A DNA stretch of 64,000 nucleotides from an uncultured Fidelibacterota bacterium (GCA_902526795.1 CABZMF010000001.1:720-64719); one strand, 5' to 3'. Counted from the first letter of the stretch, positions 1 through 31,789 are shown. Numbers and translations are program-made. The notes: generated by a model from the sequence alone, not told the origin.

Positions 1-937
1 TGTAAATGTGAAATAAGTCTGATGATAATACACTAATTCCAGAAGAATTATGTGCTACATCATAAAATATGTCTTCCTCCATTTGTTGCATTCTTCCTGG
101 CCAAAACCATTGATCTAAACCTTCTTGAATTTGAGAATCGCTAATATTTTCAAACTCATTTTTTATTGTTTCAATTGCTAACACTGCGTTCTCAGCTTGG
201 AAAGATCCTGCTTGAGGAAGAATATAAATTTTGTCTTTAAATTTTAGATGAAGTGAACTGGTTTTATGCTCAATTAAATTAATCTTTTCTTTATCAATAT
301 AATTTGTTTTAGTATTTTGTTTTTTTGAAAATTTTTCGATTATCTCAGCTATATTACTCTTGGTATTTATTGTTGTATTTGGTACAGAATTTTTAATAAT
401 ACCACATTTTTCTGCGGTTATTTCTTCAACCGAATCGCCTAAAAGGTGTGTATGGTCAAAGTCAATTTCAGTAATTATAGTGTGAATAGGTGATAAAACA
501 TTTGTTGAGTCTAATCTTCCCCCAAGGCCTGTTTCTACTATGGCAATGTCAACATTATTTTTTCTAAAATAATTAAAAGCCATTGCTGTAGTAGCTTCAA
601 AAAATGTAATTGAATGCTTTTCAAAAAAATTTCTGTGTTTTTTGGTAAAATTTATTATTTCATCATTACTTATAGTTAATCCATTTATTCTGATTCTTTC
701 ATTAAAGTTTAATAGGTGAGGGGATGTATAGAGTCCAACCTTCAGACCAGCGTTTTGTAAAATTTTTGCTATTATAGATGCTGTTGAACCTTTACCGTTC
801 GTACCAGCTAAATGAATTGATTTAAATTTATTATGAGGTTCATCACATTCATGCAGAATTTTATTAATGTTCTCTAATCCTAACTTTATTCCTCTATTAT
901 GTAGTTGATATAAATATTCTAAGGTGGAATCAATCAT
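1..937 (-). CDS. folC: Folylpolyglutamate synthase/dihydrofolate synthase, truncated by the window edge
   Basis: Not in the ORF track. Hand translation from ATG at 937 gives MIDSTLEYLYQLHNRGIKLG...IHLAGTNGKGST (FolC P-loop) and D(V)AHN near the window edge. Confidence 0.9.
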   Translation of the reverse strand, partial: MIDSTLEYLYQLHNRGIKLGLENINKILHECDEPHNKFKSIHLAGTNGKGSTASIIAKILQNAGLKVGLYTSPHLLNFNERIRINGLTISNDEIINFTKKHRNFFEKHSITFFEATTAMAFNYFRKNNVDIAIVETGLGGRLDSTNVLSPIHTIITEIDFDHTHLLGDSVEEITAEKCGIIKNSVPNTTINTKSNIAEIIEKFSKKQNTKTNYIDKEKINLIEHKTSSLHLKFKDKIYILPQAGSFQAENAVLAIETIKNEFENISDSQIQEGLDQWFWPGRMQQMEEDIFYDVAHNSSGISVLSSDLFHIY

Positions 938-940
938 TGT

Positions 941-2089
941 TTATAACGCTTTTTCGTACCGTTGCACTGCTCGGTAAATTGCTGTCGCTAATTGATCTCT
1001 GTATTGAGGACTTCTTAACTTTTTTTCTTCTGAAGGATTGGAAATAAATCCTAACTCAACTAAAACATTTGGCATAGAAGCACGTGCAAGAACCACAAAT
1101 CCTGCCTGTTTTACACCCCGATCCCTGCTTTGCACTCTCTTTTTAATTTCTATTTGTACTAAATCAGCAAAAGTCTCACTATAAATGGCAAAACCTGATT
1201 GGGCAATTGTTGCTTGAATTAAATCTTCACCTGTCAATGCTTGACCTGGTATGCCTTCTAGTTCTAATACAGCATTTTCTCGCGCTGCAACTCTTGCAGC
1301 ATATTCATTTTTACTTCGCCCAATCAAGAATGTTTCAAATCCACTAGCTCTTCTATCTTCTGCTGCATTTGTATGAATACTTATAAATAGACTTCCATTA
1401 TTTTCGTTAGCTATCTTGGTTCTGTCGCTTAATCTCAGAAAAACATCTTCATCTCTTGTCATTACTACTTTTACATCCATATTTTTGATCAATTTTTTTT
1501 CTAGCCTTTTTGCAACATCTAGTGCAATATCTTTTTCTTTAGTTCCTCTGTATCCAACTGCGCCGGGGTCTTTTCCTCCATGTCCTGCATCAATAACAAT
1601 GGTCTTAAATTCCCATTTTTTCTTCTCATTTTTTAGATCAACTTTCACTATTTTTTTAGGTATTTCAATAAGCCTTGATAAACTAATCTGATTAGTTTTT
1701 AATGTTAGTGAACTTGACGTGGATAAATTATTAATTATGTTAAAAAAAGATTCAGCAGGAACATAATAATTATTGTCTTGCATTACTACTTTTGATGAAA
1801 GCTGATAAAGACTATCATCAACGACTATAAATGCAATTTGGTTTGTAATTTTAATTTTTTTATTATCAATGTAAAATTCTATTTTTTCCGTCTTATCATT
1901 TGTAAAGTTTTTTGAATTAGTTAGTTTAATAAAATCATTCAATGAAAAAAGTTGTTTGTTTTGTATGGTATTTATTTCACCAATCAATACTTTATTTTCA
2001 AAAAATTTTAGTTTTGTTTTAGTATTTGGAAATAATTGAGAGGACAAAATAATATAAAATAAACATAAATATGTACTGAATGATTTCAC
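941..2089 (-). CDS. N-acetylmuramoyl-L-alanine amidase (Amidase_3)
   Basis: IVIDAGHGGKDPGA, KEKDIAL, FISIHTNA and VLVELGFISN zinc-amidase motifs. Confidence 0.92.
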   Translation of the reverse strand: MKSFSTYLCLFYIILSSQLFPNTKTKLKFFENKVLIGEINTIQNKQLFSLNDFIKLTNSKNFTNDKTEKIEFYIDNKKIKITNQIAFIVVDDSLYQLSSKVVMQDNNYYVPAESFFNIINNLSTSSSLTLKTNQISLSRLIEIPKKIVKVDLKNEKKKWEFKTIVIDAGHGGKDPGAVGYRGTKEKDIALDVAKRLEKKLIKNMDVKVVMTRDEDVFLRLSDRTKIANENNGSLFISIHTNAAEDRRASGFETFLIGRSKNEYAARVAARENAVLELEGIPGQALTGEDLIQATIAQSGFAIYSETFADLVQIEIKKRVQSRDRGVKQAGFVVLARASMPNVLVELGFISNPSEEKKLRSPQYRDQLATAIYRAVQRYEKAL

Positions 2090-2110
2090 AGTTTAAATTA
2101 TTATAAAAAT

Positions 2111-2147
2111 TATACAAAAGGGCTCAAATTTTGAGCCCTTTTGTATA
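2111..2147. terminator. Probable intrinsic terminator hairpin downstream of the small membrane protein pair
   Basis: 18-nt perfect inverted repeat TATACAAAAGGGCTCAAA / TTTGAGCCCTTTTGTATA with A and T tracts flanking the GC stem. Confidence 0.8.
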
Positions 2148-2172
2148 TAAGTCAATGTGGAAGAAAACTAAA

Positions 2173-2385
2173 TTATTTTTTCATCAACATTGCAACAATC
2201 AAAACTGCTACTAAACCAGCAACTCCACCATCTCCAATTGCGTTCACTGCACTACCAATGCCCGCAATAACACCAAAGATATCATCGTAAAGTATACCAA
2301 TAATAGTACCAGCAACAATCAAATTGATTAGTAAGCCTGTTATCATGCTTAAAAAATCATTTATTTGTTTTATCTGATTTTTCAT
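2173..2385 (-). CDS. Small hydrophobic Gly-rich membrane protein of unknown function (paralog 2)
   Basis: 70-aa ORF, strong SD (GAAGGAG), two to three hydrophobic segments, resembles the upstream ORF. Confidence 0.8.
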   Translation of the reverse strand: MKNQIKQINDFLSMITGLLINLIVAGTIIGILYDDIFGVIAGIGSAVNAIGDGGVAGLVAVLIVAMLMKK

Positions 2386-2407
2386 TATGTTTTCTCCTTC
2401 GAGCTTT

Positions 2408-2434
2408 TAGAGCTCCTCAATAAGAGGAGCTCTA
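2408..2434. other. Intercistronic 11-bp perfect hairpin
   Basis: TAGAGCTCCTC-AATAA-GAGGAGCTCTA between the two small genes. Confidence 0.7.
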
Positions 2435-2455
2435 TTTATTAGTAAGTACTGATCT

Positions 2456-2662
2456 TTATAATAGTGATAAAAATACCACCAGAACAAGAAGTCCCGTTAA
2501 TCCACTATTAAGAAAAGTATCTACAAAACCCATTATACCACCTAAAGCATCAACCGGCGTGTCGAAAAGAATACCTGCAAAGACAAAAAAGATAATTGCA
2601 GCTTTTACAACGCTTGTTAAACCGTCTAACGCATTAGTCAACATTGAATCCCATGAAGCCAT
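2456..2662 (-). CDS. Small hydrophobic Gly-rich membrane protein of unknown function (paralog 1)
   Basis: 68-aa ORF with perfect SD AAGGAGG; GILFD...G..G...GLTGLL pattern shared with the downstream ORF. Confidence 0.8.
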   Translation of the reverse strand: MASWDSMLTNALDGLTSVVKAAIIFFVFAGILFDTPVDALGGIMGFVDTFLNSGLTGLLVLVVFLSLL

Positions 2663-2936
2663 GTTATTCCTCCTTGATTAGTTAATAACTAGTTAAAAAA
2701 AAGGCAAAAAACCTACAAACTTATAGTTTTTTTGCCCCCATCATTAATCATGTCAATATGATTAAATTCTTTAAAAAGTTGCCAAAAATTCATTTTATTT
2801 ATAATTATAGTTTCTTTTTTTGGCGTAATCAACCTTTTTCAAGCATTGTTATTCAAATAAATAATACTATACTTACATCTATTTTTATTGAGTATTCACA
2901 AAAAATGTTGAATTCTATTATTTCATATGACGTTAA

Positions 2937-4238
2937 TTGACATTAACTTTTTTGATGAGAGAAAAACTCAAACCAATAATTGAAAAAGTCCATGCAAGAG
3001 AAATTTTAGATTCAAGAGGATTTCCTACGATTGAAGTAGAAATCACAGCTTCAGGACATACTAGTATATCTGCTGTTCCTTCCGGAGCTTCTACTGGAAA
3101 ATTTGAAGCTTTAGAATTACGTGATAATGATAAGGACAGATTTCATGGAAAAGGTGTATTAAAAGCAGTAAAAAATGTTATTGATCATTATGGTCCTGCT
3201 CTAATTGGTAAAGACGCAAGCGATCAAAAACTTATTGATCAATTTCTAAATAATCTTGACGGATCCTCAAACAAAAGTACATATGGTGCAAATGCGAGCT
3301 TAGGCATTTCAATGGCATGTGCTGTGGCTAGTTCATCTTTTTTTAATAAGCCATTATATGAATACATAAGTCCCAAAAGTAATATAATGCCTGTTCCTAT
3401 GATTAACGTATTAAATGGTGGAATGCATGCTGACCAAGGATCAGATCTTCAAGAAATTATGTTATTCCCACACGGAGCTAAAAGCTTCTCACAATCAATT
3501 CAAATGGGGTCTGAGGTTTTTCACTGTTTAAAGAATGATTTAAAAAAACAAGGACTAAATACTGCAGTGGGGGATGAAGGAGGATTTGCTCCTGCACTAA
3601 AATCAAATGACCACGCGATTGAACTATTATTAGGTTCTATTGAAAAATCTGGTTTTGAAATTGGGAAGGATATTTCACTCGCGCTTGATGTAGCTGCTTC
3701 GAGTTTTTATAAAAAAGGAAAGTATCACCTTAAGGTTGATGGAAATATTCTTGATACAGATGGTATGGTTTCTTTTTATGAAAATCTTATACGTCAATAT
3801 CCTATTGTTTCAATTGAAGATGGATTAGACGAAAATGATTGGGATGGGTGGACAGTTTTAAATAAAGCCTTAGGTGACAAAATACAAATTGTTGGTGATG
3901 ATTTAACAGTTACCAATCCAAAAAAACTAAAAAAAGCAATTGATAAAAAATCAATTAATTCAATATTAATTAAATTAAATCAAATAGGTACCTTAACAGA
4001 AACAATTGAATCAATTGATATTGCAAAATCAAATAGATGTAATTATATAATTTCACACAGATCAGGTGAAACAGAGGATACTTTTATTTCAGACTTAGCA
4101 GTTGCTATGGGTGGTGGTCAAATCAAGACTGGATCTGTTTGTCGCTCAGATAGAACCGCTAAATATAATCGGCTTTTACGAATTGAAGAGAAGCTTGAGT
4201 TACCAAAGTTTTGTACTAATTTAAGTTTCATAAAATGA
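2937..4238 (+). CDS. eno: Enolase (true start probably the ATG at 2955)
   Basis: AREILDSRG, SGASTG, VGDEGGFAP, SHRSGETED and QIKTGS motifs. Confidence 0.98.
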   Translation: MTLTFLMREKLKPIIEKVHAREILDSRGFPTIEVEITASGHTSISAVPSGASTGKFEALELRDNDKDRFHGKGVLKAVKNVIDHYGPALIGKDASDQKLIDQFLNNLDGSSNKSTYGANASLGISMACAVASSSFFNKPLYEYISPKSNIMPVPMINVLNGGMHADQGSDLQEIMLFPHGAKSFSQSIQMGSEVFHCLKNDLKKQGLNTAVGDEGGFAPALKSNDHAIELLLGSIEKSGFEIGKDISLALDVAASSFYKKGKYHLKVDGNILDTDGMVSFYENLIRQYPIVSIEDGLDENDWDGWTVLNKALGDKIQIVGDDLTVTNPKKLKKAIDKKSINSILIKLNQIGTLTETIESIDIAKSNRCNYIISHRSGETEDTFISDLAVAMGGGQIKTGSVCRSDRTAKYNRLLRIEEKLELPKFCTNLSFIK

Positions 4239-14830: not shown

Positions 14831-17800
14831 TTAAAAACTAATGTTTAAACCAACCCTTACTTGACGCGGTCTGTTCCATCTACCAGGAAACGCTAAGTTG
14901 TCCTCGTACATCGCAGCTGCATCTACATCAGGATTGACAGATAATCTATTGGCAAGCCATTGTTGCCCACTTTCAGTAGCAACCCAGCCATCTTCGGCTA
15001 CGTTACCAGTACCATGATAAACATCATTAACTTGCTCATTATCTAATGCATTAAACACAGCGACATATGCGTTGGCAGTTAAACCGCCTAGGCTAATGGC
15101 TCTATCAACACGAAGATCTAAGTTTGTAAATGCAGGTAATGTACCTGAGTTTACTGGTCCTTCCGGGAACTCCCAGCGATTCTCAAAAACTGTACTGTAG
15201 ATTTGAGATGGAGTATAACGAGTACCACTACCAAAACTCATAACTGCATTGAATCCTGTTTTTGCTAAAGCACCTGTAGCATCAGGTGATCTATAGTCAA
15301 GAATTACGTTTGCTGTATGTGTTTGGTCGTAATCTAATAGATTCATCGCTTTAGGATATCCATCATCTGTACCAATCCAAGTAATGTAGAAGTTCTGTCC
15401 ACCGTATGAACCAGTACCTCTAGCTTCTGAGTATGTATAATTAGCTTGTGCGTACAAACCTCTTGTTCTGCGCATTTCAAAGTTTGTTGTCAAACCTTGG
15501 GATACCATGACGTCACCGTTTTGGTATTGTGCCCAGTTTTGCTGAGTATCCGCACCACCTGTGTTAGTGAATGCTTCTGTACGATTAGCAAGCGTTAAAT
15601 AGTCTTTACTCTCTTTATAGAATCCTTCAACCTTTAATGAAGCAAATGCTCCAATACGTTGCTCAATACCGATTTCATATTGAGTTGATCTTTCAGGTTT
15701 TAATGCAGGATTCTCAGATGCAGTAGCGTTACCAGCAAGAATGTCAGCTGATAGCTGTGAATCTGAAAGATATAAATAAGACATAGGTACTGATTGCCAG
15801 TGTGTACCATAATTCGCACGGAATACTGTACGATCGGACACTGGGAATGAGACACCTATTCTTGGGTGAGTAGCGGTTTCTTTTTCAACTTTTTTCCAAA
15901 CATAGTTACCGTTACCGTCACCATTTCTATTTACACGTTGTCTGTTAAAATATAAGTTGTTAAAACCATCAGAATCACCATATCCATCACCATCTGAATC
16001 AGGAGCCATAGCACCTGTATCAATAGTTTCATAGGAAATACCTAATTGAACAACTACATCTTTAAACTCAAGTTTGTCTTGAATATAGAAACGTGATTGT
16101 GTTGGCTCTGCAGGAGCTAACATATGATCGTCTTGATTATATGTTCCGTTCCACTCATCACCATAAATATTGTATCCTAGATTTGTAACATACAGTGATC
16201 TGTAGTTAATAAATCTCCAGTCAGCTGGATCACTTCCTGCTGCAATAATTTCTTCGTTTGTTGCAACACCGTCATAGTTTGCGTCAACCTGAGAAATTGC
16301 TCTTGCAACACCTGAAGCGCTCAAACCATACCTAGTGATCTCATGATTATCAACAGATGCACCTAATTTCAATTCATTATAACCAATTTGGTTAGTGTAA
16401 TCAAAACTAAGGGTGTTAGTTGTTGTTTTTCTAGTATTAAAACTTGTCCACTGAGAACCATAACCGACTACACCAAAGAATTCATCTGGTGATAATGGGT
16501 TAAAGCCCGTACCATCTCTCTTATAATAGTTTGGAGATCCGTAAGCTTTAGTTCTTCTACCGTATGCTTCAATATCCTCTAAGTAGTTTTCATTACCAGT
16601 AGTAGTTTCATAAGTCTGTTGAGACAATGAAGCTTTAATATATGATAATGGACTAATTGTATATCTAGCATTTAAGTATCCCATAGCAAAATCTGATTGA
16701 TTTATAAATGATCCATCAGTTCCACCATATACTCTGCTCCAGCTGTAACTATGTCCTTCATAATCATATGCTTGAGTACCAAGTTTTAAACGTAAAGGAC
16801 CAAAGTCCATGGTCATATTACCATTAACGGTAACTCTTTCGTTATCGTCTTGTGGCTGTTGACCATACATACGTCTATAGTTACTGTAAACAACATAAGT
16901 TGTATCATAAGCAGCTACTCCAGCAGCTAATAAAGCTGGATCAGTTTGGTTATCACGAACAACAGTTTCAATGTGATGAATCTTGTTGCCCATCTCATCA
17001 GTACCGTATGCTAAACCATCAGTTCCATCGCTGTAATATTCAGCTGGTGGAGCATCTTGCATAGCCATCGCATCCATCTGTGGATAATAGCTGTATGATA
17101 CATCTCCGCCTAACTCTTTAGCTTCGACAGATAAGTATACTTTAATGTTATCACTAATTGGACCACCAAAATCAAAGTTTACATTTTGATATCCATCAGT
17201 ATAAAGTTTATCTGGATCTGTGCTTGGGTCTGCACCTAGAGAGGCTTCAAGCCCAACTCTGGATGTCCATTCAGATCCACCTGTTTTAGTAGTAATGTTT
17301 ACGATACCACCATTGGCACCACCGTATTCAGCAGAGAAACCTCCAGTTTGAACTGAAATTTCTTGCAGTGCTGCTTGTGAGTTACCGTTTAGGAGGTTTC
17401 CACCACCATAAACATCTTTAACTGGAACACCATCGACAAAGTAACGACTGTCTCCACTTCTACTTCCACGAAAATATCCATTAACAACACCTGTTTGTAG
17501 GTTTACAATATTACTTACCCCTCTAACAGCAAATGCATCAATCAACTCTTTATCAACAACACGAGTTGTATTTGTAGCATTTGGATTAATTAATGGTCTT
17601 TCTCTAGTTACTGTAACTGCTTGACCGGCCACAGCTGCTACATCAAGGTTAAAATCAACAGATGTTGTAAAACCAACTGAAGTTTTCACTCCTGATTCAA
17701 TTACAGTTGTGTAACCAATATATTCAGCTCTTAGGTCATAAGTACCTACAGGAACGTCAAGAATATAGTATCTACCTAATTCATCGGTAGCTGCACCAAG

Positions 17801-17947
17801 GTTTGAACCTTCAACTACAACATTCGCACCAACTAATGGATTGCCATCAGCATCTGCAACAACACCTGCTAGCTTAGCAGTTGTTGATTGTGCAAACATC
17901 ATTGTTGGTAGGACAACCAGCGCAATTAACATACGTAGTTTTCTCAT
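14831..17947 (-). CDS. TonB-dependent receptor with an N-terminal carboxypeptidase-regulatory-like domain
   Basis: Start reassigned to ATG 17947 (MRKLRM..., GGAGG SD). GANVVVEG...GAATDELGRY domain, plug motif GGFSAEYG...GGIVNI.TKTG, NPALKPERS.QYEIG, C-terminal Phe. Confidence 0.9.
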   Translation of the reverse strand: MRKLRMLIALVVLPTMMFAQSTTAKLAGVVADADGNPLVGANVVVEGSNLGAATDELGRYYILDVPVGTYDLRAEYIGYTTVIESGVKTSVGFTTSVDFNLDVAAVAGQAVTVTRERPLINPNATNTTRVVDKELIDAFAVRGVSNIVNLQTGVVNGYFRGSRSGDSRYFVDGVPVKDVYGGGNLLNGNSQAALQEISVQTGGFSAEYGGANGGIVNITTKTGGSEWTSRVGLEASLGADPSTDPDKLYTDGYQNVNFDFGGPISDNIKVYLSVEAKELGGDVSYSYYPQMDAMAMQDAPPAEYYSDGTDGLAYGTDEMGNKIHHIETVVRDNQTDPALLAAGVAAYDTTYVVYSNYRRMYGQQPQDDNERVTVNGNMTMDFGPLRLKLGTQAYDYEGHSYSWSRVYGGTDGSFINQSDFAMGYLNARYTISPLSYIKASLSQQTYETTTGNENYLEDIEAYGRRTKAYGSPNYYKRDGTGFNPLSPDEFFGVVGYGSQWTSFNTRKTTTNTLSFDYTNQIGYNELKLGASVDNHEITRYGLSASGVARAISQVDANYDGVATNEEIIAAGSDPADWRFINYRSLYVTNLGYNIYGDEWNGTYNQDDHMLAPAEPTQSRFYIQDKLEFKDVVVQLGISYETIDTGAMAPDSDGDGYGDSDGFNNLYFNRQRVNRNGDGNGNYVWKKVEKETATHPRIGVSFPVSDRTVFRANYGTHWQSVPMSYLYLSDSQLSADILAGNATASENPALKPERSTQYEIGIEQRIGAFASLKVEGFYKESKDYLTLANRTEAFTNTGGADTQQNWAQYQNGDVMVSQGLTTNFEMRRTRGLYAQANYTYSEARGTGSYGGQNFYITWIGTDDGYPKAMNLLDYDQTHTANVILDYRSPDATGALAKTGFNAVMSFGSGTRYTPSQIYSTVFENRWEFPEGPVNSGTLPAFTNLDLRVDRAISLGGLTANAYVAVFNALDNEQVNDVYHGTGNVAEDGWVATESGQQWLANRLSVNPDVDAAAMYEDNLAFPGRWNRPRQVRVGLNISF

Positions 17948-18194
17948 TATTCTACCTCCAAATGAGTATTTTATATACAAATTTTTGTTTGTCATTTTTT
18001 TCATTTTTATTTCTTACCCTATTATATATATGTGTAAAAGCTCACAATATATACAGACTTTCCAAAGGGTTCGTGCCCTTCCAAAAAGCAAATCCATCTA
18101 AATTGACGATTGTTTCCGTAGATGTCAATACTTTTTTGGTAATTTTTTTTTTGTTGTCGAGGACAAAAAAGAGTTTTGTCGTCATAAAAACAGA

Positions 18195-19436
18195 TTATGG
18201 GTATTTATTATAAATTACTTGATCATCGTAAGTATCATAATTATTTATGTTCAAGTCCTTATTTTTGAGGCTGTAATCAAAAAAATCAAGCACTGTTCTA
18301 TCCATTACTAAGTCTACTATTTTCTTGTCCACTTCTCCTAATTTTTTCAATGGAATAGAAAAAGGAGCGTTTTCTCTATAAATTAATTTTAAATCTGTAT
18401 ATGAATAATGAAGGCTATTTTTAATGTATACGCCATAGCTCTCTTTATTATTTTTTAAAATAGTATTATAAATATAAAAATTTCTTTTTCCATCTTTCGA
18501 GCCGTTAATATCTCCATTAATTGTATCATCAAGAAATTGTTCTTGTCCGATGTGCAAAAACGGTTTATTAGTGTCTGTAAATGCTTCTTCATCTAACAAA
18601 CCATAAAACCATCCATCAAAAGCAATGCCGGCTTTTATATTTTTATTTTTCAGCATTGCTGTATAGGTTGTACCTCCCCCCATTGAGTGCCCCATGGCTC
18701 CAACCCTGTCGAAATCAATGATATCTTTAAATGGATTATTTGATTCATCGCTAAATTTTTCCTGCTTAAGTGTTTCTAATAAAAAAGAAAGGTCTTGGTA
18801 TCTGTAATTTATAAGCATATTAGTGTAATATTTTCTATGGTATTGTGCTTGCTCGCGCCAGCTAATATTTGACTTGTATAGTATAGCATTACCTTCCTTG
18901 TCGAAAGTAATACTTGCATTATATGTATGGTTACATGCAATGACAATATATCCGTTGCTTACCAATTCTTCTACCTGAGATGTGTTCTGGTTTAAAAGTC
19001 CTCCATCCCCGTGTGAAAAAAGAATTAAAGGAAACGTTTTGTTTTTTATTGGCTCCAAGCCACTAACACTATTTGAAACAAGCTGTACTCCATGTTTTCC
19101 AAAATTGGCAGGAAGCCCCACTGCTTTTGATATAGTTGAAATTGATTTAGCTGGGAAAGTTACATGTGGTGCTTTTTGATAATTATTTCCACCGTTTGCT
19201 GGATACCAAATCTGAACCATAAGCTCTCTTAAATCATTAGGATCTGTAGTATAAACTTCACCCCTTGATGTATCCGTCCAAAAATAAGTCTGTGTACCTA
19301 TATTATATTTTCCTTTTGGTGGTTCAATAGAGTCTAAAGGAACAAGTACAGACCCTGCTAATGCACATCCCTGTATAAAAAACATTAGCAAAAATAAAAA
19401 AAATTTTAAAGTATTGTTTTGGTATAAAAAACTCAC
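18195..19436 (-). CDS. Alpha/beta hydrolase, PAF-acetylhydrolase-like carboxylesterase
   Basis: RELMVQIWYP, PLILFSHG, GHSMGG nucleophile elbow, DGW. Confidence 0.85.
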   Translation of the reverse strand: MSFLYQNNTLKFFLFLLMFFIQGCALAGSVLVPLDSIEPPKGKYNIGTQTYFWTDTSRGEVYTTDPNDLRELMVQIWYPANGGNNYQKAPHVTFPAKSISTISKAVGLPANFGKHGVQLVSNSVSGLEPIKNKTFPLILFSHGDGGLLNQNTSQVEELVSNGYIVIACNHTYNASITFDKEGNAILYKSNISWREQAQYHRKYYTNMLINYRYQDLSFLLETLKQEKFSDESNNPFKDIIDFDRVGAMGHSMGGGTTYTAMLKNKNIKAGIAFDGWFYGLLDEEAFTDTNKPFLHIGQEQFLDDTINGDINGSKDGKRNFYIYNTILKNNKESYGVYIKNSLHYSYTDLKLIYRENAPFSIPLKKLGEVDKKIVDLVMDRTVLDFFDYSLKNKDLNINNYDTYDDQVIYNKYP

Positions 19437-19443
19437 AACATAA

Positions 19444-20756
<1,313 letters not shown>

Positions 20757-20757
<1 letters not shown>

Positions 20758-23087
20758 TGTTTGATAAAATTGCTAGTTGGGACATAATTGATTTATCTTC
20801 TAACTCAGACGCAGAAATCGCAAACACGCTTAAAGAGTTAAATATTCCGCTTAGTGTTGGTGAGGCAAAAAAAATTCAATTCTCATTTCTTAATAGACCG
20901 CCTACATTAACGGAATTAGTCTTGTTTTCAATTCAAGGATCAGAACATAGTTCATACAAAAGTAGTAAAAATCATATAAAACATTTTTTGACAGATGGTA
21001 AACATGTAATCCTCGGTGCTAAAGATGATGCTGGAGTCATTTCTTTATCTGTTGATAATAACGGAAACAGGTATGGTCTTGTAGTAAGCCATGAATCACA
21101 CAATCACCCCAGTCAAATTGTTCCATATGAAGGAGCTGCTACTGGGGTTGGAGGAAATGTGAGGGATGTTTGTTGTATGGGAGCAGAAGTGGTGTCTTTG
21201 GGGGATAGTTTAAGATTTGGTGATATCAACAGAAATAAAACAAAATGGATTAGCGACGGTGTTGTATCGGGTATTGCAGGATATGGTAATCCGCTTGGCA
21301 TACCAAATGTTTGCGGCGATTTATATTTTGATAGAGAATATAATGAAAATTGTTTAGTAACTGTTTTAACAGCTGGAATTGTTAAAGAAAAAAGTGTAAT
21401 AAGATCGAAGGTGCCAGAAAACTCTAGTGATTATGATCTTATACTAGTTGGGAAGCCAACAGATAATAGCGGGTTTGGAGGAGCAAGTTTTGCATCATTG
21501 GAGCTTGAAGAAGAAAAAAAACAACAAAACAAGGGGGCTGTTCAGGAGCCTAATGCATTTCTTGAAAGACATATTCTTAAATCGACTTACGCCCTTTTTG
21601 ATTTTTTAGAAAAAAACAATCTAATTAACAAGGTAGGTTTCAAGGATTTAGGCGCCGGTGGTGTTGCGTGTGCAAGTATTGAGTTGGCAGATGCTGCTGG
21701 GTTAGGCGCTGAAGTTTGGGTTGACAAAATTCATACTAGCATGCCTGAGCTTGATGGTCACATGATATTATGTTCCGAAACCCAGGAGCGATTTATGTGG
21801 GCTTGTCCAAAAGATTTAACACAAACCATTTTAGACCATTATAACGTAGTTTTTGATCTCCCAAATGTTTCAGTGGGTGCACAGGCAAGTGTTGTAGGCA
21901 AGATTATAAATGAAAAGCATTATAGTGTCTATTATAAAAATAAAAAAATTGTAGATGGTCCAATCAAAAAAATTAATGAGGGATTTGTTTATGATCGCCC
22001 AATGTTGCAAAAAAATGTGCAAAAATCAAATGAAGTTTTACCAAAAAATATTGACTATGATGATTTAATATTAAAAATTTTATCTCATGAAAACGTGGCC
22101 TCGCGTGCAGTCATTTACGAGTCTTATGATAAAAATGTGCAAGGCAGGGTTGTTAATGAAAGAGGTAAAACAAATGCTGGCGTTGTTGCTCCTTTTGATT
22201 CTAAAAAATTTCCTGAAGAAATTAAAAATGATTGTTTTTCTGCTGCCCTTGCGCATAACCCTTCAATTGGTAAAGTTGACCCCTATGTTGTTGCACAATA
22301 TGCTATTATAGAAGCTTGTGCAAAAACTGTTTCCGTTGGAGCCTCTCCGCTTGCCCTTACTGACTGTTTATGTTTTGGGAATCCCGAAAAACCTAAACAA
22401 ATGTGGCAGTTTTCTCAAAGTTGTATTGCTATTAGAGAAACCTGCAATCTTTTACACTTCAACGAAACAAACAACCTGCCAATTGTAGCAGGAAACGTAA
22501 GTTTTTATAATCAAAGCGGAAATCAACCTATACCTGCAAGCCCAATGATAGGGTGTTTTGGAAAGCTTGTTAAAGATAGAGTGTTAATGAACGGCTTTAA
22601 ATCGATTGATAATAATCTTTATTTATTGGGCGAAACTCCCGCCTTCATTGGTGGAAGTATAGTAGCAAGTGTTTTGAAAATAAAAAACACAGAAATAAAA
22701 AAAATTGATGTAAAGAAATATGGTGAGATGCTAAACTGTGTTTTAAAAGCTAATTCATTGTCATTGATAAATTCTTGTAATTATGCCGGGCTTGGTGGTC
22801 TAGCAACTACTCTATTTAAAATGAGCTTTGTAAATGATATAGGTTGTGTCATCGAAGAAGATATAGATAAAGAATTATTATTTAGCGAAAATTTTTCACT
22901 AGTTGTTGAGGTGTCTGAAGAAAATTCTCCAACCTTTGAGGACATACTTAATAAAAATAAGTGTACCTTCAAGCGAATTGGCAAAACAAATAATTCCAAT
23001 AAGATTGTTGTAAAAAATTTCATAGACTTGGACGTAGCGCAAACAAAAAAAACATGGGAAAATGCACTTAGAAAGAAACTTCAATAA
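20757..23087 (+). CDS. purL: FGAM synthetase large subunit (small-type PurL)
   Basis: SEHSSYKSS, ESHNHPS..PYEGAATGVGG..RD, DLGAGG, SETQER, TDCLCFGNP, GNVSFYN. Confidence 0.95.
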
Positions 23088-24130
23088 TGAATAAAAAAAT
23101 AACTTATAAGGATGCCGGAGTTGACATTAAGAAAGCTGATGAAGCAATTGAAATGTCGAAAAAAGAAATTAATAGTACGTTTAGTAAAGATGTTTTGTCT
23201 TCAATTGGTGGCTTTGGATCAATGTATTCACTTAAGAATATTTTTAACAACTTTAAAGACCCAGTTCTAGTTCAAAGTGTTGATGGTGTTGGAACAAAAA
23301 TGTCTGTTGCTATGGCAGCAAACAACTTCCGATTTATTGGTCATGACTTGGTAAATGCATGTTGTAATGATGTAGCTGCAACCGGGGCCATGCCTTTTAC
23401 TTTTTTAGATTATGTAGCTGGCAGCGATCTTGATAAAAATATAGTTTCGGAAGTAATTAAAAGTGTTGCGCACGAATGTAAGGTACATGGTGTTTCTTTG
23501 GTTGGTGGTGAAACTGCTGAAATGCCTGGAACATACCACAAGAATGAGTATGATTTGGTTGGAGTGGCTACTGGGATTGTTGAAAAAAGAAATATTATTG
23601 ATGGAAAAAATGTAAAAGCGGGAGATGTTGCTATCGGCGTTTTTTCTAACGGTCTTCATACCAATGGTTACTCTCTAGCTAGAAAGCTTATTTTTGAAAC
23701 TATGGGTCTTACAACGTCTGATATTTTGCCAAAACACAGCATAACAGTTGAAGACTGTTTATTAGCTCCACACACAAATTATAGTTCTTTAATAACACGT
23801 ATTAATGATGCCGGAATTAATATTAAAGGTGTTTCCCATATTACGGGGGGTGGTTTGATTGATAATGTACCACGAGCCATTCCAGGAGATTTTTCTTTAG
23901 AAATAGATACCACCTCTTGGAATAAAATACCAATATTTGACTTCTTACAAAACAATCTAGATATTGGTACAAAAGATTTGTACCAAACTTTTAATATGGG
24001 TATCGGGCTCGTGCTCATTGTAGATGAGTCAAAAAAAGAAGAGTTGATTTCTTTTATAGGCAGAGAAAGTTGTAATAAAATTGGTGTTGTTGTAGATGAT
24101 AAAGATAATGTGGTACACCTTTATGGATAA
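23087..24130 (+). CDS. purM: AIR synthetase
   Basis: YKDAGVDI, DGVGTK, GGETAEMPG, SNGLHTNGYSL, HITGGG, FNMGIG. Confidence 0.97.
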   Translation: MNKKITYKDAGVDIKKADEAIEMSKKEINSTFSKDVLSSIGGFGSMYSLKNIFNNFKDPVLVQSVDGVGTKMSVAMAANNFRFIGHDLVNACCNDVAATGAMPFTFLDYVAGSDLDKNIVSEVIKSVAHECKVHGVSLVGGETAEMPGTYHKNEYDLVGVATGIVEKRNIIDGKNVKAGDVAIGVFSNGLHTNGYSLARKLIFETMGLTTSDILPKHSITVEDCLLAPHTNYSSLITRINDAGINIKGVSHITGGGLIDNVPRAIPGDFSLEIDTTSWNKIPIFDFLQNNLDIGTKDLYQTFNMGIGLVLIVDESKKEELISFIGRESCNKIGVVVDDKDNVVHLYG

Positions 24131-25373
24131 AAAGAAAATAGCGTATATTCAGTTTCCAGGCTCTAATACTGAAAATGAAACAAAAAATATTTTACAAAAA
24201 CACGGCATGTTACCGTTTGGACATTTTTGGAACGATGCACCAGAACTACTAAACAGTTGCGGTGGCTTTATCATTTTGGGTGGATTCTCTTTTGAAGACA
24301 GGTCCAGATCAGGAATTATTGCATCACTTGAACCGGTTGTTGGTGAGCTAAAAAAACAAGCTGTGCTTGGTAAGCCTATTTTGGGCATTTGTAACGGAGC
24401 ACAAATTTTGGTTGAGTCAGGCCTTGTTCCAGGTAACCAAGATTTTCAAACTTTGGTCTCTTTAACTGACAACAAGAGAATGATCGGTGATCGTATTGTT
24501 GGAACTGGCTATTACAATAAATGGTGTTATATAAAGCCGTGCGAAAATACAAACTCAGCTTTTGTTAAAAAAGGTGGGAGCCCAATGCACGTTCCTATTG
24601 CACACGCAGAAGGTCGGTTTTTATTTAATAAGGATCTTGAAGACGAAATATTAAAAAACAACTTAATAACTTATAAATATTGTGACGCAGGAGGGAATCT
24701 TTCTAATGACTTTCCAACCAATCCAAATGGCTCGCTTCATAGTACGGCGGCTTTAAGCAACCCCAATGGTAACGTAATGGCAATAATGCCCCACCCCGAA
24801 CGAACACTTGGAAATGAAGCTGACGATCTTTTTAATAGTATGAGAAACTATATTGAGTCTGATGATCACTACAGCTTCAAGTCTTTAAATTTTTCATCAA
24901 AAAAAATAAATATTAAAAAATTTACAAGACCCGCTAAACAAAATGAAATCCTTGTGTCTACAATTATTGCAGACAATGAGGCCGCGTCAGTCGAGAAGTG
25001 CATTAATAGTTTAGGTGTGAAAGCAAGGGTGAAAAAATATCTACACTTTGAAGTTGATGCAAACGACGATTTTGATATTAACACAATTGTCTCAACCGAT
25101 GTACTGTTTAATCCAAGCAAAGAATACATTACTAATTTGGAAGAAGGCTCTGATTTATACAGATTCTTAGTTCGAAGCAAGGATGATATAGTTGGTCAAA
25201 GCCTCTCTCAAACTTTGCAAGACCGTTTCAGTTTATCAGGATTAAAGTCAATTAAAAAGAGTGTTGTTTGGGAAGTTAAAATTAATTCAGCTAGAGCAAA
25301 AAAAGACGTGGATTTAATATTAAATAGTCATATTTTTTCTAATCCAATTTCACAGGAGTGTCATGAATATTGA
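24123..25373 (+). CDS. purQ: PurQ glutaminase fused to two C-terminal PurS-like repeats
   Basis: Start reassigned to ATG 24123. FPGSN, GGFSFED, GICNGAQIL, AHAEG, NPNGS and MPHPER motifs, then about 170 extra residues with LFNPSKEY and IFSNPISQE endings. Confidence 0.9.
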   Translation: MDKKKIAYIQFPGSNTENETKNILQKHGMLPFGHFWNDAPELLNSCGGFIILGGFSFEDRSRSGIIASLEPVVGELKKQAVLGKPILGICNGAQILVESGLVPGNQDFQTLVSLTDNKRMIGDRIVGTGYYNKWCYIKPCENTNSAFVKKGGSPMHVPIAHAEGRFLFNKDLEDEILKNNLITYKYCDAGGNLSNDFPTNPNGSLHSTAALSNPNGNVMAIMPHPERTLGNEADDLFNSMRNYIESDDHYSFKSLNFSSKKINIKKFTRPAKQNEILVSTIIADNEAASVEKCINSLGVKARVKKYLHFEVDANDDFDINTIVSTDVLFNPSKEYITNLEEGSDLYRFLVRSKDDIVGQSLSQTLQDRFSLSGLKSIKKSVVWEVKINSARAKKDVDLILNSHIFSNPISQECHEY

Positions 25374-26337
25374 CAAAAAATATTATCAGGAAATAAAAGA
25401 AAACCTGACTAATACTATTCAGGATACCAATATTGGCGCCCCTAACAAAAAAATTGGTAAGGTTAGGGATGCTTATTTTCTTAATGACAAAGTAGTGATG
25501 GTTTCTACTGACAGACAAAGCGCTTTTGATCGTGTTTTGGCTGCAATTCCATATAAAGGCGCTGTTTTAAATTCCGTTAGTGCATGGTGGTTTAAAAAAA
25601 CTGAGCACTTATTCCCGAATCATCTTATTTCTACTCCTGATCCAAATGTATCAATTGTGGAAAAGTGTGATGTCTTTCCTATTGAGTTTGTTGTGAGGGG
25701 CTATATTACGGGGACTACTGATACTTCTTTGTGGACTGTCTATAACAATGGAGATCGAGAATATTGTGGGAACCTCCTTCCTGAGGGGTTAAAGAAAAAT
25801 GATAAGCTTGACAAGCCTATGTTGACACCAACAACTAAAGACAAAGTCCATGACCGTCCTGTTTCTAGGGAAGAAATTATTGATCTTGGGTTAATGTCTG
25901 CGAAAAATTACGATCTAGCTGCTAAAATGAGTCTAGACCTTTTTGCTTTTGGGCAAGAAACTGCAAAGAGTAATGGTTTGATTTTAGTTGATACTAAATA
26001 CGAAATCGGTACAGATTCAAATGGAAACATTAAATTTGTGGACGAAATACATACACCCGATAGTAGCAGATTTTGGATTAGCGATTCATATAAGGAAAGA
26101 ATTAATTCAGGTCAAGAACCAGAAAATATAGATAAAGAATTTTTAAGGTTGTGGTTTGCAAAAAACTGTGATCCTTATAATGACGAAGTTTTACCTGATG
26201 CTCCCGACGATCTCGTTGCTGAGCTTTCTGCTAGATATATTTTATTATACGAACTAATTACTGGTGAAAAATTTATATTTCCAAATCTCGACGATATAAA
26301 CAAACGTATTACTGAAAACATAAAGGAACTATTATGA
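25363..26337 (+). CDS. purC: SAICAR synthetase (long type)
   Basis: GKVRD, TDRQSAFD, PIEFVVRGY.TG, TPTTK, LVDTKYE.G, DEIHTPDSSRFW, DKEFLR. Confidence 0.96.
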   Translation: MNIDKKYYQEIKENLTNTIQDTNIGAPNKKIGKVRDAYFLNDKVVMVSTDRQSAFDRVLAAIPYKGAVLNSVSAWWFKKTEHLFPNHLISTPDPNVSIVEKCDVFPIEFVVRGYITGTTDTSLWTVYNNGDREYCGNLLPEGLKKNDKLDKPMLTPTTKDKVHDRPVSREEIIDLGLMSAKNYDLAAKMSLDLFAFGQETAKSNGLILVDTKYEIGTDSNGNIKFVDEIHTPDSSRFWISDSYKERINSGQEPENIDKEFLRLWFAKNCDPYNDEVLPDAPDDLVAELSARYILLYELITGEKFIFPNLDDINKRITENIKELL

Positions 26338-26729
26338 AAGCTATATTAATAATGGGATCAACCTCTGATCAGTCACACGCAGACAAAATTACCAGCACAC
26401 TAGACACTCTTGGAATTGGACATGAGGTTCATGCTGCTTCTGCTCATAAAAACCCTGAAAAGGTTTTAGAAATTATAAGATCTTTTGGTGAGAACGATGC
26501 TGTTGTATTTGTTACGATAGCTGGAAGGTCAAATGCTCTTTCTGGTTTTGTAGGTGCAAACTGTAATAAACCAACTATAGCTTGCCCCCCTTTCAAAGAC
26601 AAGGTTGATATGAGCATTAATATCCACTCAACGCTTCAAATGCCAAGCAAAACTCCTGTACTCACTGTTTTAGACCCCGGTAATTGTGCTATTGCGGTAC
26701 ACAGAATATTAAACATCGGCTCAATGTGA
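26334..26729 (+). CDS. purE: AIR carboxylase, class II-type PurE
   Basis: MGSTSD, SAHK, AGRSNAL and IACPP motifs. Confidence 0.9.
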   Translation: MKAILIMGSTSDQSHADKITSTLDTLGIGHEVHAASAHKNPEKVLEIIRSFGENDAVVFVTIAGRSNALSGFVGANCNKPTIACPPFKDKVDMSINIHSTLQMPSKTPVLTVLDPGNCAIAVHRILNIGSM

Positions 26730-30832: not shown

Positions 30833-31401
30833 GGTTGGCTATTTTAGGATCAACCAACGGTACTGACTTAGTACCCATTGTTGCAGCAATAGACAGTGGT
30901 GAATTGTTAGCAAGTGTTGAAGTTATAGTTTCCAATAATAAGTCGTCTGGTATTCTTAGAAAGGCCAAGAGCTATGGTATAGAAAACCATTTTATTTGTC
31001 ATAAAAACAAAAAACGTGGTGTATTTGATTTTGAAATTTCACAAATTTTAGAAAATAAAGAAATTGATTTAATTTTACTTATTGGATTTATGAGAATTCT
31101 TTCATCAGAGTTTGTAGGAAGGTGGCATGGAAAAATAATTAACGTCCACCCTTCTCTACTGCCAAAATATGCTGGTGGTATGAACAGTGGTGTTCACGAA
31201 AGCGTTTTGGCTGCGGGTGATAAAGAGAGCGGGTGTACAATTCATCTTGTAACCAAGGATGTTGATTGTGGTCCTATTTTATTACAGAAATCGTGTCCTG
31301 TTTATGAAAACGACACTGTCGAATCTCTTAAAGAAAGGGTTCAAAAGCTTGAGGGGGAATCTTTTATTGAGGTAATTAATAACTGGAGGAGTTATGAATA
31401 A
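30829..31401 (+). CDS. purN: GAR formyltransferase
   Basis: GFMRILS, INVHPSLLP, SGCTIH, D.GPI..Q. Confidence 0.95.
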   Translation: MRLAILGSTNGTDLVPIVAAIDSGELLASVEVIVSNNKSSGILRKAKSYGIENHFICHKNKKRGVFDFEISQILENKEIDLILLIGFMRILSSEFVGRWHGKIINVHPSLLPKYAGGMNSGVHESVLAAGDKESGCTIHLVTKDVDCGPILLQKSCPVYENDTVESLKERVQKLEGESFIEVINNWRSYE

Positions 31402-31789
31402 CAAACTGTTTTTTGGCTTTATTTCAACTGTTGAAAAAGTTCTGCACTTAATTATACTGGGTATGGTAATGTTCCTTTGTTTTGAGGAAGTCATGTCTGC
31501 TGTAGACGGTGGCGGAATCAAAGTAGAGAGCGTTTTAATGCTGTTCATTTATCTAGAAATCATGCAAATGGTAAACATATTTTTTTCCACTGGAAAAATT
31601 CCAATAAGATATCCTTTGTATATTGGTATGTTTGCTCTTGCAAGACATATATCTTTTGATGATATAAAAGGCATTGATTCTTTATATCTTTCTGCTTCTG
31701 TAGCTCTATTGTCTTTGGCTCTTGTAGGCTTGGCATATAGAAACAAAATAATGAACAAAAACATTCCAGAGCTTCCAGAAAACGAATGA
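31394..31789 (+). CDS. PsiE (phosphate-starvation-inducible E) family membrane protein
   Basis: LMLFIYLEI..M...F..GKIPIRYPLYI..FALAR pattern; four TM segments. Confidence 0.75.
   Translation: MNNKLFFGFISTVEKVLHLIILGMVMFLCFEEVMSAVDGGGIKVESVLMLFIYLEIMQMVNIFFSTGKIPIRYPLYIGMFALARHISFDDIKGIDSLYLSASVALLSLALVGLAYRNKIMNKNIPELPENE

Follow-up and report, generated by a model that had tools for sequence, protein, structure and literature searches.

In the small genome of an uncultured marine Fidelibacterota bacterium, the glutaminase PurQ of the de novo purine pathway continues, within a single 416-aa chain, into two PurS-like units, and this PurQ with a built-in PurS dimer very probably binds the small PurL encoded nearby and replaces free PurS in FGAM synthetase. 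The gene, referred to below as purQ-SS, lies in a stretch of 64,000 nucleotides, called the window as a whole; positions are counted from its first letter.

Gene and operon context

An open frame of 24096-25373 encloses purQ-SS. From the ATG at 24123 the product has 416 aa and agrees with its homologues in both length and N-terminus: the 95 close homologues, in which the tail shows high conservation, measure 414-424 aa, and those that bear a name come from Marinimicrobia. The gene belongs to a de novo purine operon that is almost complete and lies on the + strand of the window, in the order purA, purL, purM, purQ-SS, purC and purE, followed by purB, purF, purD, purN, a PsiE-family gene and purH (Table 1). 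The stop of purM and the ATG of purQ-SS overlap by 8 nt, and the TGA stop of purQ-SS and the ATG of purC by 11 nt, so that the three genes are tightly coupled. The window gave no match to an Rfam family, purine and ZTP riboswitches included.

Several neighbours deserve a remark of their own. The product of purE is short, with 131 aa, and scores 114 bits against PF00731 and 107 bits against TIGR01162, whose cut-off is 150. No purK above threshold was found in the genome, in which two weak matches lie within frames of 457 and 1067 aa; the enzyme probably works without PurK, as a class II-like PurE. Between purN and purH the operon contains a gene for a membrane protein of the PsiE (phosphate-starvation-inducible) family, identified by a Pfam match. 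Elsewhere in the window, a gene for a secreted-looking alpha/beta hydrolase resembling PAF-acetylhydrolase and PETase is adjoined by a long ORF with a signal-peptide-like N-terminus.

Table 1. Positions in the window of purQ-SS, its parts and the neighbouring genes
Feature	Position	Strand	Basis or remark
ORF adjoining the alpha/beta hydrolase gene	14831-18004		1057 aa
alpha/beta hydrolase gene	18195-19436	-	413 aa; PF03403 E 1e-26, PF12740 E 2e-9
purA	19471-20757	+	purine operon member
purL, small PurL (776 aa), presumed partner, without PurS-like N-domain	20757..23087	+	TIGR01736, 595 bits, above the cut-off; residues 33-774 of 776
purM	23087..24130	+	ORF; directly upstream of purQ-SS, translationally coupled by overlap
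purQ-purS-purS fusion gene (purQ-SS)	24123..25373	+	ORF and translation; 416 aa plus stop
PurQ glutaminase domain, residues 1-235	24123..24827	+	PF13507, TIGR01737, invariant C90/H224/E226
conserved linker, residues 236-273, about 38 aa	24828..24941	+	invariant residues; low pLDDT in full-length model
PurS-like unit 1, residues 274-338 (IIADNEA ... LFNPSKEY)	24942..25136	+	PF02700 (sub-threshold), hhalign, AlphaFold2 tail model
PurS-like unit 2, residues 345-416 (FLVRSKDDIVG ... IFSNPISQECHEY)	25155..25370	+	hhalign, T. maritima PurS match, AlphaFold2 tail model
purC (long PRK12607 type), directly downstream, overlapping	25363..26337	+	NF009251, 419 bits
purE	26334-26729	+	family assignment; Pfam match
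PsiE-family gene	31394-31789	+	131 aa; Pfam match

Glutaminase domain and linker

A preliminary description, made from the sequence of the window alone, had recognised here a complete PurQ with a C-terminal extension, and the domain analysis agrees. GATase_5 (PF13507) matches residues 4-235 with 133.9 bits against a gathering score of 27 (E 7e-39), which identifies the domain as PurQ by the Pfam test, and the MPHPER motif (residues 222-227) and the end of the glutaminase are followed by about 181 further residues. Cys90, in GICNGAQ, and His224 and Glu226, in MPHPER, are invariant in 25 homologues and form what we take to be the Cys-His-Glu catalytic triad of class I amidotransferases; residues 1-235 constitute an active-looking triad glutaminase. 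The NCBIfam model for PurQ, TIGR01737, gives 164.3 bits (165.5 in the six-frame search) and does not reach its equivalog cut-off of 177.8. The fused relatives score 167-228 bits with the same model, compared with 263-337 bits for the canonical PurQ of the phylum, and on these sequence scores, in which the window protein and its fused relatives fall below canonical PurQ, the protein belongs to a divergent PurQ lineage.

Between the glutaminase and the first PurS-like unit lies a linker that consists of a helix (residues 234-245) and a segment of the pattern FSYKxL..SKKI...F, with S251, L255, K261 and F267 invariant. The linker is probably more than a passive tether.

Two PurS homologues in the tail

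The two units of the tail measure about 65-72 aa, and their boundaries in the AlphaFold2 model of the tail lie only a few bases from those first proposed (24942-25135 and 25158-25373). The closing motifs of the units, LFNPSKEY (residues 328-335) and IFSNPISQE (residues 404-412), had been likened to the C-terminal motif of PurS, and in profile-profile alignments both indeed fall on LLANPvie.Y, with which free PurS ends. The scan of the tail with curated profiles gave a divided answer. The window's own tail scores 17.4-17.9 bits with Pfam PurS (PF02700), below the gathering score of 22.2 and on unit 1 only, and it is also below the NCBIfam PurS cut-off; as it stays under both curated thresholds, automatic annotation gives just PurQ, and with so low a match on the window's own sequence a call made from the motifs alone was unproven. 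Comparison of profiles, on the other hand, confirmed the assignment.

Across the relatives, PF02700 is the only Pfam family to recur among the tails, with matches in 12 of 20 (best E 1.5e-7) and in 25 of 54 diverse tails (best E 1.9e-8). The alignment of the tails was then split into units 1 and 2, each of which was compared by hhalign with 20 free PurS proteins from other genomes of the same phylum. Unit 1 matched free PurS with 93.7% probability (E 1.9e-7), unit 2 with 95.7% (E 1e-8), and the two units matched each other with 95.7%; reversed-sequence controls all remained below 1% probability, which together with the E-values places the match to PurS beyond chance. The alignments pair IADNEA with ILDPeG, the central strands with GK.fe.., and LFNPSKE and IFSNPISQE with LLANPvie. 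Unit 1 departs from free PurS in having DNEA in place of DPxG. By sequence comparison, both units are PurS homologues.

Searches of the PDB by sequence profile were less productive: hmmsearch with a profile of the close tails brought up no PurS, only a chance match to an Axin-interactor protein, whereas a wider, diverse tail profile matched just two distinct sequences, 3d54_B and 1vq3_A, both of them PurS from T. maritima and both matched by unit 2, at E 0.06-0.08. The units share about 20% identity (14 identical residues in 73 aligned columns) and differ in their conserved motifs, D-N-x-A in unit 1 and a G-x-x-W strand in unit 2. As many as 44 columns are invariant among 20 tails, which argues that the tail is under selection. 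PurS is known as a stand-alone small dimerising protein, whereas here the two units stand in tandem within a 416-aa PurQ chain.

Predicted fold

An AlphaFold2 model of the tail (residues 270-416), built on an alignment of 54 sequences, reached a mean pLDDT of 95.4 and a pTM of 0.88 and consists of two beta-alpha-beta-beta-alpha-beta units. The model, hhalign and Foldseek agree on the characters of PurS, namely this fold of about 80 aa and the C-terminal LxNP..Y motif, in line with the PurS fold expected for the extension. In a Foldseek search of the PDB with the tail model, all 18 matches at E <= 0.001 were large PurL of Salmonella (FGAR-AT; 1t3t, 3ujn and others) or human (PFAS; 9nb3, 9n9w), with E 1.6e-5 to 1.3e-4, prob 1.0, TMq 0.63-0.73 and about 150 columns. 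The single PurS chains 1vq3_B and 3d54_B matched over 78 columns, that is, half of the tail model. Foldseek gives no target coordinates, and we infer that the matched part of large PurL is its PurS-dimer-like N-domain, since from published knowledge this is the part of the protein with such a shape. The two units are thus predicted to pack into one compact module, a pseudo-dimer with the shape of the large PurL N-terminal domain. An AlphaFold2 model of the full-length protein, for which 25 close homologues were used, was too uncertain in linker and tail (mean pLDDT 67.5) to place the module against PurQ or PurL, and it was left out of the fold search.

The beta-alpha-beta-beta-alpha-beta fold is also common to the PII/GlnK family, and GlnK/PII structures do appear among the weak Foldseek matches (E 0.04-0.2, prob 0.2-0.4). 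The tail might accordingly be read as a regulatory module of the ferredoxin-like type, similar to ACT or PII, through which a sensed metabolite controls PurQ and which does not replace PurS. We consider this very unlikely, as the confident structural matches are all to large PurL and the matches at the sequence level all to PurS, and as a purely regulatory add-on does not predict the exclusion between the fusion and free PurS observed over 151 genomes of the phylum.

Fusion and free purS across the phylum

The ORF map of the purine cluster contains no separate purS, as had been noted before, and the wider search that this called for extended the result to the genome: in its 915 kb (14 contigs, 92.6% complete), a six-frame PF02700 search found no free purS, the sole match having an E of 0.19 and lying inside a 406-aa frame. 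The same search was positive in 12 of 14 control genomes. A survey of 151 genomes of the phylum, with the tail profile and PF02700 at E <= 0.01, detected the tail in 28, which represent most families of the window's own order and one further family (f22), and in all 28 it lies within ORFs of 417-458 aa. A PF02700 match is present in none of these 28 genomes, compared with 97 of the 123 without the fusion (Fisher's exact p = 8e-16, not corrected for phylogeny). Across the phylum, fusion and free purS exclude each other.

A short gene can readily escape detection, and the genome of the window is neither complete nor in one piece, which leaves room for a normal free purS in its unassembled part and for a tail that is only a dispensable, PurS-derived relic. 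This combination is extremely unlikely: the six-frame search is independent of gene calling, the fusion genomes uniformly have no PF02700 match, among them the single-contig assembly G071, and the strong conservation of the tail speaks for selection rather than decay. Six genomes of the window's order have neither the tail nor purS. Five of them have no PurQ match and in the sixth the PurQ gene is cut by a contig end; two of the six are also without PurL, and the others have PurL fragments only. As none has an intact PurQ, they are not counter-examples to the exclusion.

A further observation concerns two genomes of the window's genus (G087 and G143), which are 95-97% complete by marker estimate and have no match to PurL or PurQ. 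Assembly gaps may hide the pur operon in both; otherwise, de novo purine synthesis has been lost in some members of this genus of roughly 1-Mb genomes.

Distribution of the fusion and its relatives

An exhaustive profile search recovered 247 clusters at 50% identity (E <= 1e-3), including about 70 full-length proteins that measure 400-460 aa and have the tail as their C-terminal part. Judged from cluster names and the phylum survey, the named carriers are Marinimicrobia, a Patescibacteria MAG and a gammaproteobacterial MAG, the last with a 683-aa PurQ-SS-PurC. The fusion is thus widespread and already present in databases under the plain name PurQ or "FGAM synthase I". A frameshift or assembly artefact was rejected as its source, given that ORFs of this same length are met again in 28 genomes and hundreds of metagenome contigs.

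Some of the recovered proteins are longer. P0141 (683 aa, from a JGI metagenome) is a single-chain PurQ-PurS-PurS-PurC, joining what in the window are two overlapping genes, and its NCBI relatives, from a Gammaproteobacteria MAG, are annotated as separate partial purQ and purC. P0190 (647 aa) carries a long C-terminal stretch resembling a membrane segment, and P0222 (548 aa) has large insertions inside PurQ and between PurS strands; these two variants may be gene-call read-throughs or real elaborations.

Origin of the fusion

Three layouts coexist within one phylum. In the canonical one, purS (frames of 81-104 aa) stands directly upstream of a purQ of 223-251 aa, an order opposite to that of purQ-SS, where the PurS units follow PurQ. 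In a second, found in family f19, a PurS-PurS-PurL protein of about 1000 aa (997 aa in locus L036, G029:C1:1814000-1818200, ORF 356-3349, - strand) is accompanied by a separate, divergent PurQ of about 280-305 aa, whose branch in the PurQ tree is very long (3.58). PurQ-SS is the third.

The profile matches also include stand-alone proteins of 135-160 aa that start at unit 1. A Nanoarchaeota MAG has the order purL-purQ-purSS, in which a tandem purSS gene, annotated as hypothetical, overlaps purQ by 4 nt, and a second contig carries purQ-purSS-purE-purC, again with an overlap of 4 nt; the free tandem genes behind purQ in these two cases encode 145-148 aa. Since the gene order of the unfused purQ-purSS pair equals the domain order of the fused protein, the fusion probably arose by loss of the purQ stop codon ahead of a downstream tandem purS-purS gene.

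In an unrooted maximum-likelihood tree of 49 PurQ domains, a branch with support 97/95 unites every PurQ that goes with a tandem PurS (30 fused, 2 unfused), and the phylum's canonical PurQ stands apart (98/87). The unfused pair (98/88) is placed outside the 30 fused proteins (83/91), a topology consistent with a single fusion event. The tree also shows that the window's lineage did not obtain the gene from the canonical purS-purQ pair present in its sister classes. Two histories would fit, horizontal acquisition and ancient paralogy with differential loss, and the unrooted tree does not discriminate between them.

Proposed function and comparison with known FGAM synthetases

The fusion would represent the glutaminase subunit of FGAM synthetase (FGAR amidotransferase, step 4 of purine synthesis) with the PurS dimer built in. 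A single PurQ-SS chain most likely binds the small PurL encoded two genes upstream in a 1:1 ratio, and the tandem module would occupy the place between glutaminase and synthetase that the PurS dimer has in PurLQS, its docking geometry being a matter of analogy. In this position it would couple glutamine hydrolysis to ammonia transfer. A complex of four chains (one PurL, one PurQ and two PurS) would thereby become one of two, with no need for a free purS. PurS is required for glutamine-dependent FGAM synthesis and binds both PurL and PurQ; that the tail would do likewise is supported indirectly by its mutual exclusion with free purS. Both the 1:1 binding of PurL and the location of the tail in the place of the PurS dimer are to be expected from the known stoichiometry of PurLQS and from the N-domain of large PurL, which contacts both catalytic domains. 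The ratio of 1 PurL : 1 PurQ : 2 PurS is given by Hoskins et al. 2004, in the form in which that work is cited in PMC10912719, and both this stoichiometry and the PurS-dimer-like N-domain of large PurL are described in PMC10912719, PMC10927867 and PMC3261824. The two units would hold non-equivalent positions in an asymmetric complex, which fits their low identity and their different conserved motifs. The earlier proposal that the fusion "hard-codes" the 2:1 stoichiometry is a reasonable one.

The system resembles the PurL-PurQ-PurS2 complexes of B. subtilis and T. maritima (PurLQS, 3D54) in its small PurL, its triad glutaminase PurQ, its two PurS-type domains and its pur operon, and T. maritima PurS is the protein with which unit 2 aligns and which half of the tail model matches. 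The difference is that here covalent bonds link the PurS copies with one another and with the PurQ C-terminus. With large PurL (Salmonella 1T3T and its mutants; human PFAS 9NB3) it has in common a single-chain PurS-dimer-like module, as far as Foldseek and the presumed N-domain placement indicate. In large PurL, however, this module is N-terminal to the synthetase in one chain of about 1300 aa, whereas the window protein carries it on the C-terminal side of the glutaminase and PurL is encoded by a gene of its own. The PurS-PurS-PurL format (mdPurL), known from methanogens (PMC3261824) and represented by the 997-aa protein of family f19, is alike in placing a tandem PurS function on a catalytic subunit and in the absence of free purS, but its tandem is joined to the N-terminus of PurL and that of the window to PurQ; hhalign of the tail profile with the N-domain of the f19 protein gave 7.8% probability and a non-collinear match. 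The claim that this is a route of fusion different from that of large PurL therefore stands, the glutaminase being followed by PurS-PurS in a chain separate from small PurL, in reverse of the order in large PurL and mdPurL.

The tail could, in addition to acting as a PurS dimer, scaffold PurC and PurE into a small multi-enzyme purine assembly. The overlap of purC with the end of purQ-SS, the existence of single-chain PurQ-SS-PurC proteins such as P0141 in other lineages, and the recurrent gene order purQSS-purC-purE (a variant occurs in L042) would all be in keeping with such a role. Yet operons commonly show such adjacency and, now and then, read-through fusions, neither of which proves physical scaffolding, and we regard this extra function as improbable.

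Novelty and significance

Brown et al. 2011 (PMC3261824) distinguish the smPurL, mdPurL and lgPurL formats, and PurQ-SS is not among them. A full-text literature search found no description of a PurQ-PurS fusion, its coverage being incomplete and hence no proof of novelty. We lean, with some reserve, towards regarding PurQ-(PurS)2 with small PurL as a fourth, undescribed format of FGAM synthetase, which would have originated once from a purQ/tandem-purSS pair, constitute its own PurQ lineage, and have reached distant groups, for the most part uncultivated and with reduced genomes (Marinimicrobia, Patescibacteria and some Gammaproteobacteria, with DPANN archaea holding the unfused form), its PurS halves having diverged into non-equivalent roles. 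If this is true, the diverged halves would reveal the face that the PurS dimer turns to PurL and the one that it turns to PurQ.

The fusion is a rearrangement of known parts, not a new mechanism; it is real, and useful for annotation as well as enzymology. Fusion proteins are named only "FGAM synthase I", and a precomputed PurS match exists for just 3 of the 95 close homologues, so that pathway reconstructions of SAR406/Marinimicrobia, CPR and similar groups will report purS as missing, and the cells may wrongly be called purine auxotrophs. As a natural single-chain asymmetric PurS dimer carried on a glutaminase, PurQ-SS also offers a convenient two-protein system for the way in which PurS couples glutamine hydrolysis to ammonia channelling. 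Seen alongside the mdPurL of a sister family and the canonical purS-purQ of further families in the same phylum, it illustrates that the same quaternary structure has been hard-wired by gene fusion along at least three routes.
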